47,329 bases of DNA from Candidatus Peribacteria bacterium RIFCSPHIGHO2_02_FULL_51_15 (GCA_001788965.1 MFXU01000004.1:1-47329); one strand, 5' to 3'. Numbered from the stretch's first letter, positions 8,389-30,342 are shown. Numbers and translations are program-made. Notes: generated from the sequence alone by a model not told the origin.

Positions 8389-9819
8389 TCAGGCCGCCAA
8401 CCCCACCTCCCGCTCAATAGTCCTCAGCTCCCTAAGCAATTGTGCGTCTTCCTGGATCTTGTTCTCGATCTTCCCCACCGCATGCATGACGGTCGTGTGA
8501 TCCCGGTTGGAGAAGGTCTCGCCCAGCCGGACGAAACTCATCCGGAGGAATTTCTTGCCCATATACATGGCAATATGCCGCGGAATCAACACCTCCCGGA
8601 CCCGCGACTGCCCCAGCATGTCCTGAACCGAAACCGAGAAATAACTGCTGACCCCCTCGAGCACGTCCTGAAAAGAAACTGCATGCTTGGCCGGCGGCTC
8701 AAAGCCGACTTGGCCGGCCAGCGCCGGATCGTCCGCCACCAGCTTCTGCATGATATCGGCGATGGATTTCACGGTCGGAACGAAATGCTCAAGCTCATAT
8801 TGGGCCACCGCCTGCATCAGAATGCCTTCCAGCTGCCGGACGCTCTTGGTCGCGTACTGCGCTATGTAATTCAAAACTTTTTCATCCAGGAGCAGTCCGT
8901 ATTCCTTGGCCTTCTCGGAAAGGATGGCGTGGCGCGTCTCATAATCCGGCTGGCTCAAATCGGCGATCATCCCGCGCTCGAAGCGCGACACCAGCCGGTC
9001 CTGGAGGATTGTAAGCTCGCGCGGCGGACGGTCGGAGCTGATGATGATCTGTTTGCGTTCCTCGATGAGAGTGTTGAACGTGTGGAAAAGTTCCTCCTGT
9101 GTGCGGTCCTTGTTTGCCAGAAACTGGACGTCATCGATTATCATCACGTCTAACTCGCGGTAACGGCGCCGGAACTGCTCCATCTTCTGATGCTGGATGG
9201 CCTCTATCACCTGGTTCGTAAAATCTTCGGTAGTGGTATACAGCACGGTCGCGCCGGGCTGGTTTCTGAGTATTGCATTGCCGGTACCCTGCAAAAGATG
9301 TGTTTTCCCGAGACCTACCCCGCCATAAAGGAACAGCGGGTTGTATTTTCCGCCAGGCTGTGAAGCTACCGCGCAACAGGCGGCATGTGCCAGCCGGTTA
9401 TTGGGTCCGACTACGAAATTTTCCAGAGTGTATCTGGAGTTCAGTATTTTGCTTACCAGGCCCTCGGCCAGTTTTATTTCACCTTTGTTCGGCAACTTGC
9501 GTCCGCGTTTTTTTTCCGGAAAATGTTCGAGTAGCTTGAGCGTACGGGCCAGATCATCTTTGAGTCCGACATCTACCTGATACACGACCTGCTCGATCGT
9601 GGGATCCGTTTCTTTCAATGCTTCCAGGGTGAGTCCGCGATAATGCTCCAGATGCCAATTTAGAAACATGGGTAGCGGCAAACCGATAATCACCGTCTTT
9701 TCTTCACGACCCAGCACGGTCGTGTCTTTAAACCAGGTTATGAACTGCCCGCGCGGTAACCCGCGCTCGATTTTCTCCAGAACCTTCAGCCACAGATCGA
9801 GGTCGACAGAGGAGGTCAT
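8389..9819 (-). CDS. dnaA: chromosomal replication initiator DnaA
   Basis: 476 aa. Walker A GGVGLGKTHL, Walker B MIIDDVQF, C-terminal DNA-binding domain (NRDHTTVMHA). Confidence 0.95.
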   Translation of the reverse strand: MTSSVDLDLWLKVLEKIERGLPRGQFITWFKDTTVLGREEKTVIIGLPLPMFLNWHLEHYRGLTLEALKETDPTIEQVVYQVDVGLKDDLARTLKLLEHFPEKKRGRKLPNKGEIKLAEGLVSKILNSRYTLENFVVGPNNRLAHAACCAVASQPGGKYNPLFLYGGVGLGKTHLLQGTGNAILRNQPGATVLYTTTEDFTNQVIEAIQHQKMEQFRRRYRELDVMIIDDVQFLANKDRTQEELFHTFNTLIEERKQIIISSDRPPRELTILQDRLVSRFERGMIADLSQPDYETRHAILSEKAKEYGLLLDEKVLNYIAQYATKSVRQLEGILMQAVAQYELEHFVPTVKSIADIMQKLVADDPALAGQVGFEPPAKHAVSFQDVLEGVSSYFSVSVQDMLGQSRVREVLIPRHIAMYMGKKFLRMSFVRLGETFSNRDHTTVMHAVGKIENKIQEDAQLLRELRTIEREVGLAA

Positions 9820-15452: not shown

Positions 15453-15503
15453 AAGATGGGCCGAAAGCAAAAACCGGCTTTTTGTGGTAGAATAACAAGA
15501 TTT

Positions 15504-15977
15504 ATGAACACAAACACACAACCTCTACTGGAGTGGCGGGCTCCGGCGCGGATCAATCATGAAAAAAGCGACCGGTGGTATCTGGTCAGCGGAATTATCT
15601 GCGCGATTTTCGTTGTTTACGGGATTCTCACCGGCGCCTGGACCATGAGCATCACATTCGGAATGATCGCCGGTCTGTATTTCTATGTCCGGAATCTCGA
15701 CCACCCGCTGCACTATATCCGGATCTTCGAAGGCGGTATCGAGTTCGACGGCTTGTATTACATCTGGCCTGATTTCAAACATTTCTGGATACTTGACGGC
15801 AAAACATATCACGAACTTCATGTCGAGCCGATAAAAGGCCTCCGCGCCGACATCGTGATACTCACCGACCAGATAGATCCATTTGAACTGCGGGATGTGT
15901 TGAACCAATTCATTCCCCAGATCGCACATAAACGTGAAAGATTACTTGACGCCATTATCCGTTTTTGTAAACTATAG
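15504..15977 (+). CDS. two-TM membrane protein, function unknown
   Basis: The ATG at 15504 follows a TAGAAT -10-like box. Two adjacent TM helices are followed by a soluble domain. Its stop TAG abuts the ATG of the next gene. Confidence 0.5.
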   Translation: MNTNTQPLLEWRAPARINHEKSDRWYLVSGIICAIFVVYGILTGAWTMSITFGMIAGLYFYVRNLDHPLHYIRIFEGGIEFDGLYYIWPDFKHFWILDGKTYHELHVEPIKGLRADIVILTDQIDPFELRDVLNQFIPQIAHKRERLLDAIIRFCKL

Positions 15978-19544: not shown

Positions 19545-19552
19545 GAAGAAGC

Positions 19553-19630
19553 TCACCCCGTACTCCCAAAACCGCCTCTGGTCTCCGCCCCGTGATCATC
19601 GACTTCTTTCCACTCCGCCCGGTCGATTCT
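19553..19630 (-). pseudogene. displaced, diverged duplicate of the dut 3' end
   Basis: Encodes RIDRAEWKEVDDHGAETRGGFGSTG*, compared with the gene-contiguous KIDRAEWKEVSSHGSETRGGFGSTG* (19924-20001). Both copies begin with the same AATCGACCGGGCGGAGTGGAAAGA tract. Confidence 0.7.
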
Positions 19631-19884
19631 TATGCCGCTGCCGCCAACCCCGTATGCCGCTCCAGTCGCGTGACGCGGGTCTTCAGTGAATCGATCCCAT
19701 CTTTCGTCGCGCCGACGATATCATGCTTAAAGTTCTCCAGGAGCAGCCCCATCTGTTCCAAAATGCGGTATTCCATCGCACTCATGTCCGATTTCATCTC
19801 CGCCCGAAGATCCATAATATCCACCTTCGTCGCAGGATCGGAACGCCGGAATTTCTTCTTCGCGGGTTTTGTCATAGGACGCAT
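19630..19884 (-). CDS. small basic/coiled-coil protein lying between the two dut 3' ends
   Basis: 84-aa ORF with an ATG start. The N-terminus is KKKFRR-rich, followed by heptad-like helices. Confidence 0.45.
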   Translation of the reverse strand: MRPMTKPAKKKFRRSDPATKVDIMDLRAEMKSDMSAMEYRILEQMGLLLENFKHDIVGATKDGIDSLKTRVTRLERHTGLAAAA

Positions 19885-19923
19885 TTTACGCGCAGTGGAA
19901 ATGGTGTCAAAAAAAAATCTGCC

Positions 19924-20352
19924 TCAACCGGTGCTGCCGAACCCGCCCCGTGTCTCCGACCCGTGCGAAGAGACCTCTTTCCACTCCGCCCGGTCGATTT
20001 TGACGAAGAGCCCCTGCGCTATCCGCTCCCCTCTCTCGACCGTCACCGGATGATCGGTGGTGTTTTGAACCTGGACGAAAATCTCATCTTTTTCTCCATG
20101 GTAATCATGGTCGATTAGGCCGAGAGAATGCGGGCAAATCAGGCCTTTTTTCCGGGGCAGCGAAGAACGCGGCAATATCAGCAAAGCATAGCCATCCGGT
20201 ACTTTTACAATCACGTTTCCCGGAACCAGACCGATGGATTTGGGCTCAATTATCGTGGTTTCACGAGTTATCAGATCAAAGGCCGCCGCCCCCCCGGTTT
20301 GGTATTGGGGTAGGGGCAAGGTGGAATCTATTCGTTGAATCTGAGCTTTCAT
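19924..20352 (-). CDS. dut: dUTP diphosphatase
   Basis: 142 aa. Motifs GAAAFDL, GLIDHDYHGE and C-terminal RGGFGSTG. Confidence 0.9.
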   Translation of the reverse strand: MKAQIQRIDSTLPLPQYQTGGAAAFDLITRETTIIEPKSIGLVPGNVIVKVPDGYALLILPRSSLPRKKGLICPHSLGLIDHDYHGEKDEIFVQVQNTTDHPVTVERGERIAQGLFVKIDRAEWKEVSSHGSETRGGFGSTG

Positions 20353-20795
20353 TGCTAAATTGTTAAATTGCTAAATTGTTAACTTCAAATTCGTGAATTT
20401 TATGAGGGCATTGATTTCCTTTGGTAATTTCTGCGGCTCAGAAAGGATGTGTCTATAATGCTGTTCTGTAAGTAATTTCCTCTTTTTCGATTTTTGATTC
20501 CAATCAAGAGATTCCTTAACAGATCCAAAACTGTAACGATAGAAATTAACTTTGTCTTTTTTGCCATATCGGCCAAATCCTTCCGCGATATTGGCCGAAA
20601 TAGAATCGACTGCTCTGACAAACTGCTTACCAACCGTATCCTTCGGAAAATAATCCCATTTTATAACCGCATCCCAAACAAAGTTTGAGAGATGAAAAGC
20701 CATTTTGTAAGCGCCAACATCATTAAGGGAAAGAAAAGTTTTTTCCATATCTAATTTTTTAAAATAACAATTTAGCAATTTAACAATTTAGTAAT
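20351..20795. repeat. L-family periodic-arm palindrome carrying an ORF in its loop (L4)
   Basis: The left arm ATTGCTAAATTGTTAAATTGCTAAATTGTTAAC (20351-20383) is complementary to the right arm TAACAATTTAGCAATTTAACAATTTAGTAAT (20765-20795). The enclosed gene's stop codon lies inside the left arm. Confidence 0.75.
20371..20748 (-). CDS. four-helix-bundle protein (23S rRNA intervening-sequence protein / Avd-like family)
   Basis: 125 aa. YKMAFHLSNFVWD..., VRAVDSISANIAEGFGRYGKKDKVNFYRYSFGSVKES is characteristic of the PF05635/TIGR02436-type family. Confidence 0.75.
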   Translation of the reverse strand: MEKTFLSLNDVGAYKMAFHLSNFVWDAVIKWDYFPKDTVGKQFVRAVDSISANIAEGFGRYGKKDKVNFYRYSFGSVKESLDWNQKSKKRKLLTEQHYRHILSEPQKLPKEINALIKFTNLKLTI

Positions 20796-30012: not shown

Positions 30013-30342
30013 ATGAAAAAATTTATATCGAGATTTTCCGGAGTCGCCCCGGTGTTTTTCCCAAAGGCCTTGGCGGCTCTGAATACACCGACAACTCCAA
30101 ACGGACTGGCTTCATCGACCGATCTTGTGGGTACCATAACTACAATAATAACCAAAGTTCTGGACTTTGTTCTGATTCTGGCGATTGCCTTCGTAGTTTA
30201 CGCCGGTATCCGCCTGATAATCTCCGGAGGGGACGACGCCGCCAAAGAAACGGCTAAGAAGACGATTATTTACGTAATAGTCGGCATCATCGTGATCCTG
30301 CTGGCACGGGTCATCGTGGTCTTCGTGAACAACTGGTTCTAA
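30013..30342 (+). CDS. TrbC/VirB2-like pilin-type small membrane protein
   Basis: 109 aa. Signal-like N-terminus followed by two TM helices separated by SGGDDAAKETAKK. This layout resembles type IV secretion pilins. Confidence 0.45.
   Translation: MKKFISRFSGVAPVFFPKALAALNTPTTPNGLASSTDLVGTITTIITKVLDFVLILAIAFVVYAGIRLIISGGDDAAKETAKKTIIYVIVGIIVILLARVIVVFVNNWF

Follow-up and report, generated by a model that had tools for sequence, protein, structure and literature searches.

The window analysed here, a stretch of 47,329 nucleotides from Candidatus Peribacteria bacterium RIFCSPHIGHO2_02_FULL_51_15 (GCA_001788965.1, MFXU01000004.1:1-47329), carries at the 3' end of its dUTPase gene, dut, a 371-bp block that comprises a replacement gene end, a promoter and one small open reading frame (ORF), here called ORF84. 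The last codons of dut are repeated beyond the block, so that the gene has two 3' ends, one in use (tail 1) and one displaced (tail 2). We consider it somewhat better than an even bet (probability roughly 0.55) that this is a one-gene cassette without a recombinase, residing in the dut tail of a subclade of the Peribacteria, where it is kept, and probably exchanged, by homologous recombination.

The identity of the host gene is clear: its protein matches the Pfam dUTPase family (PF00692, E=2.7e-24), and RIFCSP metagenome-assembled genomes (MAGs) of Candidatus Peribacteria hold the identical protein, annotated as dUTPase. The C-terminus encoded by tail 1 is KIDRAEWKEVSSHGSETRGGFGSTG, followed by the stop; tail 2 encodes RIDRAEWKEVDDHGAETRGGFGSTG and its own stop, thereby repeating the last 25 dut codons. 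A repeat search returned the pair as a single 77-nt direct repeat (19552-19628 / 19923-19999) with 79% identity and a spacing of 371, in agreement with the original prediction, which had described a diverged duplicate of the dut 3' end on the same strand about 370 bp downstream. That prediction also had both copies starting with an identical 24-nt tract. This core, AATCGACCGGGCGGAGTGGAAAGA, is indeed present in exactly two copies in the window (0 expected in shuffles). Allowing up to 3 mismatches gave no third copy there, and a larger element delimited by additional cores was rejected for that reason. Over 75 aligned nucleotides the tails show 17 differences, distributed 4/3/10 over codon positions 1/2/3. 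At the codon level there are 9 synonymous and 4 non-synonymous changes, and motif V (RGGFGSTG) is the same in both tails, much as had been claimed. The core stands apart from the remainder of the repeat (0/24 vs. 16/53 differences; Fisher p=0.0017), and a 12-nt inverted match between the core and the spacer of the ORF84 promoter is at chance level for the region. The arrangement is not an assembly artefact, as 24 independently assembled contigs of the same organism (Peribacteria MAG, Rifle groundwater, GCA_001787635.1) carry it.

Comparison with related loci, denoted by L numbers in the following, shows that DNA was inserted into the end of dut. An empty-site scan using one genome per species carrying dut gave 14 related loci, mostly from Peribacteria and with 50-81% identity, and neither an ORF84 homolog nor a second tail is present at any of them or at L037, the closest dut relative (86%). 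Five loci (L013, L017, L019, L023 and L037) are empty sites with full synteny, i.e. ftsZ, dut and a convergent large gene, and at such sites dut and the convergent gene have their stops 2-13 nt apart. In the window the corresponding distance, 8 nt, is found for tail 2 and not for tail 1, and it is 1-6 nt in other filled relatives. Since tail 2 holds the position of the dut stop of the empty sites, it is the displaced native end, the junction between tail 2 and the large gene is ancestral, and the 371-bp block is the insertion. The empty sites, which the original prediction had suggested looking for, and the ancestral spacing of tail 2 thus bear out its proposal that a replacement 3' end was brought in and the native one displaced.

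The inserted block contains, in order, the 3' part of tail 1 (its 3' 51 nt being the replacement end), a 12-nt spacer, the promoter, ORF84 and one copy of the core. Both of its ends are tight, with 12 nt between the dut stop and the -35 hexamer and 1-8 nt between the ORF stop and tail 2. On the other side of the ancestral junction the genomes differ strongly. The large gene of the window is not homologous to that of its closest relatives L007 and L037, while the next gene beyond it, p173 (15456-15977), is conserved (about 50%), and the end of dut is therefore a recombination boundary in these genomes; ftsA and ftsZ of the window are 97% and 90% identical to those of L007, its closest relative. 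The large gene occupies a hypervariable slot that has the dut end as its boundary. L007 (6527-10225) and L037 (6443-10795) share a different large gene of 1232/1450 aa, with 31% mutual identity.

The cassette is not confined to one species. ORF84 homologs (55-98% identity), for which the original prediction had recommended a search, are located directly 3' of dut in at least 8 divergent Peribacteria lineages, comprising, besides the window, L007/L008, L009-L011, L028, L029, L030, L032 and the contig holding the homolog P0010. The window, L007 and L011 have the left boundary of the duplication in common, at the codons K/R-I-D/E-R, and L030 is compatible with it. All close homologs with readable context are immediately downstream of dut, with the exception of L012. 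An independent insertion site in L012 was considered and rejected, an ISL3-mediated rearrangement being more likely, and the ISL3 flanks do not match one target. This element (L012 1204-2609) is directly upstream of the ORF84 homolog, has its transposase split into ORFs of 147 and 293 aa, and carries the terminal inverted repeats CCAATATGTGGGGAGAAAAT / CCAAATTGTGGGGAGAAAAT, with two flanks that lack a common target duplication. A metagenome scan with the ORF alignment found only the L007 contig again.

Tail 2 is in very different states among these lineages. It is intact in the window (77 nt) and in L030, where 7 mostly synonymous differences separate the last 57 nt of the two tails, and it is identical to tail 1 over about 64 nt in L009-L011. 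In L007/L008 it is decayed, with a TGG to TGA change and a 62-nt insertion, 21 nt remain of it in L028, and it is absent in L029 and L032. The insertion in the decayed tail (L007 6420-6482) holds a short inverted repeat, ACCCTGAG ... CTCAGGGT. L009, with identical tails, and L029, without tail 2, are sisters on the tree of the large protein (support 0.98), indicating that the state of tail 2 changes quickly.

The two tails of one genome evolve in concert. The number of differences within a genome, compared with same-position tails between genomes, is 0 vs. 9-11 in L011, 7 vs. 9-11 in L030 and 3 vs. 5-9 in the 3' part of the L007 tails. Tails that are closer within a genome than between genomes point to homologous recombination, and the tracts of identity vary: the window has 24 nt at the 5' end of the tails, L011 about 64 nt and L007 the 3' part. 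A recent, one-off, site-specific integration, as a reading of the original prediction, is not supported, given the concerted evolution of the tails and the presence of the cassette 3' of dut in so many divergent lineages. The prediction had named as evidence against integration a duplicated arrangement shared by relatives without polymorphism, and the lack of any element carrying the core. Relatives do share the arrangement and no core-bearing element was found, but the lineages are markedly polymorphic, with empty and filled sites and five states of tail 2.

A further trace of recombination between the tails is seen in L031 (1-1540), a contig of a relative from the metagenome ERZ27258509, which holds both junctions of one IS481-like insertion, with a 5-bp duplication (GTAGT), around ORF85 and a hybrid tail. 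The hybrid corresponds to tail 2 at its left edge and to tail 1 at its right edge (GGGGTGA plus spacer A). The IS481-like element sits in the spacer upstream of ORF85 (L031 1-1540; L010 1-170), and L011 has the target site uninterrupted. The cyclic unit is about 1.56 kb, and its ORF differs by one residue (H to Y). The cyclic order of the junctions indicates a circle or a tandem duplication derived from recombination of tail 1 with tail 2.

In the window itself, the part of the repeat outside the core is as diverged as the dut genes of different genera, with a proportion of synonymous differences (pS) of 0.77 and synonymous sites near saturation. Neutral decay of the 3' 51 nt of tail 2 is nevertheless rejected (P about 0.005 if at least 8 of 15 differences were neutral). 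Of 16 DNA comparisons with dut tails from other species, 13 place tail 2 nearer than tail 1; the trend is weaker at the protein level (tail 2 closer in 56 cases, tail 1 in 22, with 41 ties). All these distances approach saturation. The preservation of tail 2 and its closeness to other dut tails imply that both 3' parts belonged to working dut genes for most of the time since they separated. One of the two came to its present place recently. A donor of tail 1 was sought among the sampled dut tails, none of which resembles it closely at the DNA level; 'SSHG' tails turn up sporadically at the protein level.

Which tail is native may differ among lineages, judging from the spacers that follow them. 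A spacer rich in GGAAAGT follows tail 1 in L011 (213-260), inside the duplicated unit. A similar one follows tail 2 in L030 (778-820), where it lies beyond the unit and precedes a Phd/YefM-like gene, and some empty sites (L020/L021) have comparable GGAAAC/GGAATC runs downstream of the dut stop.

Several observations suggest that the cassette was exchanged after its hosts had diverged, namely the low pS of the ORF, the empty site in the closest dut relative L037 and the nesting of the empty lineage L023 among filled ones on the large-protein tree (support 0.86). Between the window and L007, pS is 0.82 for the 5'-3' exonuclease gene, 0.71 for ftsA and 0.67 for ftsZ, then 0.70, 0.70, 0.63 and 0.46 in four 36-codon windows along dut, and 0.43 for ORF84 (vs. 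0.64 for the dut body), a local dip along the synteny. The ORF has a lower pS than the dut body in all six pairs of lineages bearing tail 2, e.g. 0.36 vs. 0.69 between L011 and L030 (p=0.007), and in pairs involving L028 or L032 the ORF and dut are equally saturated.

Table 1 Features of the dut locus in the window (positions counted from its first nucleotide)
Feature	Coordinates	Strand	Remarks
dut (dUTPase, 142 aa)	19924-20352	-	complete, including motif V; last 25 codons are tail 1
Tail 1 (dut 3' end now in use)	19924-20001	-	direct repeat D1
Core copy 1	19976-19999	-	24 nt, exact match to core copy 2
Inserted block, 371 bp compared with empty sites	19605-19975	-	delimited by repeat spacing; edges ambiguous within the 24-nt core
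Sigma-70-like promoter, TTGACA-16-TAAAAT	19883-19910	-	11/12 consensus matches; ends 7 nt before the ATG at 19875
ORF84	19630-19884	-	84 aa; probable start at 19875 (81 aa)
Tail 2 (displaced dut 3' end)	19553-19630	-	second open copy with stop
Core copy 2	19605-19628	-	24 nt, exact match to core copy 1
Convergent gene, 1188 aa	15978-19544	+	no Pfam domain; abuts tail 2; marks the ancestral right-hand junction

The following model is proposed for the origin and maintenance of the cassette. A unit with three parts, namely a dut tail as replacement, a strong promoter and a gene of 81/84 aa with a leaderless mRNA, would have entered dut within its last 25 codons. The geometry is that of a single-crossover (Campbell-type) event at the conserved 3' end of the gene. 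The tail brought by the cassette would then complete dut, and the original tail would be shifted downstream against the convergent gene. From then on the two tails may act as a direct-repeat pair for the homologous recombination machinery of the host (RuvC is present in the window): gene conversion would homogenise the tails, recombination of tail with tail would lead to circular or tandem products, and the conserved dut sequence on both sides probably provides homology arms for exchange of the cassette among lineages. Where recombination lapses, tail 2 would decay or be deleted. The mosaic seen in the window could arise if the first 24 nt were made identical by the crossover or by a conversion tract, and if the other 51 nt came from two dut lineages, each kept under coding selection.

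A number of points weigh against this model. The original insertion event is beyond reconstruction, and a site-specific recombinase acting in trans would give the same anatomy. RecA-type recombination between genera is poorly served by an arm of 77 nt with about 75-80% identity. The window species showed no polymorphism of the arrangement, and no dut allele left by clean excision (dut body plus tail 2) is present among about 15 billion proteins. The L031 contig fits a circle or a tandem duplication alike. The indications that the cassette is younger than its host come from short sequences, a slow synonymous rate in ORF84 could also yield its low pS, and for most filled lineages the host phylogeny is that of one fast-evolving gene. 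The contrast with ftsA and ftsZ is confounded by a shift of GC content at third codon positions (GC3) in L007. Within L007 2773-6390, GC3 is 0.84-0.87 for ftsA/ftsZ, 0.70 for dut and 0.68 for the ORF, the latter two near the values of the window. Either the region of dut and the cassette in L007 is compositionally foreign, or weakly expressed genes are trailing a genome-wide GC shift.

A more far-reaching version, which we regard as doubtful, would have the cassette as a minimal selfish gene that lacks recombinase and nuclease and spreads among Peribacteria, with the two dut 3' ends serving as homology arms or as a portable att-like site. Host recombination would circle it out and insert it into a naive dut, leaving the gene intact. 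The protein encoded by ORF84, which is always beside dut in these bacteria, could help in such a process, e.g. by binding DNA or the dUTPase.

One possible alternative is that the locus is the footprint of a single ancient event and is now inherited vertically. A larger element (prophage, plasmid or island) carrying a dut-like end would have integrated once and been whittled down to an immobile ORF84, with tail 2 looking intact only through occasional conversion by tail 1, or through the arrival of foreign DNA along with a swapped large gene. The position and boundary, conserved among lineages whose synonymous divergence is saturated, the clustering of most ORF-bearing lineages on the large-protein tree, the uniform arrangement in the window species and the concerted evolution of the tails all agree with such a history. 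The large gene was also replaced between the window and L007, and a foreign functional dut tail could have come along with it. However, vertical inheritance leaves unexplained the lower pS of the ORF in 6/6 pairs, the empty L023 among filled lineages and the empty site of L037. The tight ends of the insert are unlikely for a remnant of random deletion, and no phage or plasmid relatives of ORF84 were found. We hold this history to be improbable, though it deserves to be considered ahead of those below.

Less likely still is a minimal site-specific element, in which the 371-bp block is an integrated tiny circle with an attP made of the 24-nt core and a dut-like arm, and the recombinase, a host Xer-type enzyme or one from a helper, acts in trans. 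The core is abrupt and identical at the left edge of the homology and is followed by diverged arms. The left boundary common to several lineages, the empty sites in relatives, the patchy distribution of filled and empty loci and the cyclic hybrid junction of L031 are equally in line with it. On the other side, neither a tyrosine nor a serine recombinase is encoded in the insert or in the 47-kb window, as the original prediction had noted for integrases; the only mobile-element gene of the window is an rve DDE transposase 18 kb away (91-1332, at the left end). Read from its sequence, the core has no dyad symmetry and no dif-like layout. It does not appear to be conserved between lineages either, since L011 and L030 carry an ERATFTEV-type sequence at its position and yet have the same arrangement, and identity tracts of differing length and position fit gene conversion better than a fixed crossover site. 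The original prediction had further proposed a search for elements carrying the core next to an integrase, and no element with the core or the ORF came to light: the viral contigs contain neither core nor ORF, and the phage and plasmid collections contain no ORF homolog. The failure to find a recombinase or a core-bearing element and the differences between the tracts of different lineages thus disfavour a site-specific recombinase in trans.

Very improbable, finally, is that tail 2 is retained for a function of its own, whether translated by frameshift or readthrough as a fusion to ORF84 or serving ORF84 or the convergent gene as terminator or regulatory RNA. Its reading frame and motif V are intact in the window, L011 and L030, and it fills the whole 85-nt gap between the two convergent genes. 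A fusion was rejected because the offset between the frames of the ORF and tail 2 varies among lineages, with an in-frame stop between the two in L030 and an internal stop, besides the 62-nt insertion, in L007; moreover, L028, L029 and L032 have little or nothing left of tail 2. No ORF of at least 40 aa covers tail 2, so the second copy is not part of another gene, an outcome that would have spoken against the original prediction. A structured RNA or terminator in the tails was rejected because folding is no better than in shuffled controls on either strand (z -0.07 to +1.6), with no Rfam match and no terminator-like site. A target duplication of the transposon type was likewise dismissed, as the block has neither transposase nor terminal inverted repeats and the duplication is 77 nt, diverged, and 0-77 nt long depending on the lineage.

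ORF84, the only gene of the cassette, is under purifying selection (ratio of non-synonymous to synonymous rates, dN/dS, 0.11-0.29) and shows no strong codon bias (effective number of codons 43-53). Comparison with its homologs and the position of the promoter suggest that translation starts at the second ATG. Comparable promoters end 4-10 nt ahead of the start codon in L007, L009, L012, L029 and L032, and because they end so close to it the mRNA is likely leaderless, with a product of 81 aa. An AlphaFold2 model (pLDDT 76) predicts a two-helix hairpin with helices at residues 14-30 and 33-75 and a basic N-terminus, for which no fold match was found in the PDB. No Pfam family matches the ORF84 family above the cutoff, with coiled-coil matches below threshold. 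A CCDC90-like assignment (DUF1640, PF07798) was rejected, as only 1 of 9 members matches (E=6e-4) and the window protein does not; the match for which a score is tabulated belongs to a member of the broader family, P0020, with 14.0 bits vs. a cutoff of 33.5 bits. A weak match to phrog_5345, of unknown function, was found in 8 of 9 family members. By exhaustive profile search, 92 distant representatives share the motif PATKxDL ... RVTRLExHTGL, only 4 of them at E<=1e-10.

The protein has no nuclease signature, i.e. no match to any nuclease in Pfam, PHROG or PDB folds, and no recombinase signature, ORF84 being the sole gene of the insert and without Pfam match. A tblastn search of the phage collection gave no significant homolog (one match, E=0.4) and the plasmid collection gave none. 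No viral contig was found for the close family or for a subset of the broader family, one alignment being too diverse to scan. A phage or plasmid origin of ORF84 was rejected on the basis of these searches. In a strain variant (L033-L036) there are 2 single-nucleotide differences from the window in 1200 nt, each of which replaces a residue in the N-terminal part of the ORF84 product (V to G, L to I), and dut and the tails are the same as in the window. dut and ORF84 share a reading frame in the window (19885-19926), with a single TGA and 12 sense codons between them. Readthrough from dut into ORF84 was rejected, and the shared frame regarded as a coincidence, since the frame differs in L007, L029 and L032 and there are extra stops in L011.

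One of the closest precedents is the insertion of e14 and phage 21 into icd of Escherichia coli, where an incoming replacement 3' end keeps the gene intact, a 163-bp fragment (icd') is displaced, and the two copies of the icd 3' end differ mainly by conservative changes (PMC6379469). Likewise, tail 1 completes dut, tail 2 is displaced at the other junction, and the unoccupied site exists in relatives. However, e14 is a prophage of about 15 kb with its own integrase and defined attL/attR, in contrast to the 371-bp dut block with one non-enzymatic gene and no recombinase. The core of the dut cassette does not appear to be conserved between lineages, and its tails evolve in concert. The window has an identical core of 24 nt, and the identical or most similar tracts in L011, L030 and L007 differ in sequence, length and position. 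With regard to a free form, the cyclic junction of L031 may stand for a circle or a tandem, and the viral contigs lack both core and ORF.

The anatomy matches even more closely that of the mobile ORFs (mORFs) of fungal mitochondria, which were inserted together with a C-terminus into atp6 of Allomyces macrogynus and into atp6, atp9, cox2 and nad3 of Glomus (PMC3630166). Their order is gene body, inserted foreign C-terminus, mobile ORF and native C-terminus, the native copy being closer to relatives, and their occurrence among close relatives is patchy (PMC3630166). The dut cassette has the identical order, a native tail closer to relatives and a patchy distribution. In contrast, the mORFs encode LAGLIDADG or GIY-YIG endonucleases that drive homing, whereas the ORF84 product is an 81-aa helical hairpin without nuclease signature, and the mORF hosts are organelles, not bacteria of the candidate phyla radiation (CPR). 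The cassette is a member of neither family, because the integrase or homing endonuclease that defines them is absent; it has the same anatomy without either enzyme.

Campbell-type single crossovers produce a direct duplication around the insert, reversible circular or tandem products and conversion tracts of variable length, and are known mainly from engineered suicide plasmids and large elements. The dut cassette shares the direct duplication, the circle or tandem products and the variable conversion tracts. We know of no description of a natural, conserved, one-gene case that uses only about 77 nt of the end of a housekeeping gene. Insertion into a 3' end with provision of a replacement is familiar from prophages with integrases and from organellar homing ORFs; here the insert is 371 bp with one small gene, in a streamlined CPR bacterium. 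If host recombination and a conserved dut end are all that is involved, gene-sized selfish DNA could persist and spread on borrowed homology, which would bear on how accessory genes travel in CPR bacteria, a group in which, to our knowledge, few mobile elements are known. If it is instead an old footprint subject to gene conversion, the locus would be a tidy but ordinary case. The locus is also a clean natural case in which concerted evolution lets a useless gene fragment go on looking functional, a caveat for the dating of pseudogenes and the prediction of att sites.

Other features of the window include dnaA (8389-9819), about 10 kb from the dut locus, which places the region near the origin, and a small gene resembling a type IV secretion pilin (30013-30342). 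On the other side of dut lies a gene of the 23S-rRNA-IVP four-helix-bundle family (20371-20778, minus strand; PF05635, E=1e-19), with a GC content of 0.36 compared with 0.54-0.58 in its neighbours. Inverted repeats of 39 nt (20351-20389 / 20757-20795), made up of the 8-nt units ATTGCTAA/ATTGTTAA, enclose this gene, and the right repeat abuts the dut ATG. L007 and L037 have no such element between ftsZ and dut, and in the window it has the look of another small insertion beside dut, separate from the cassette.

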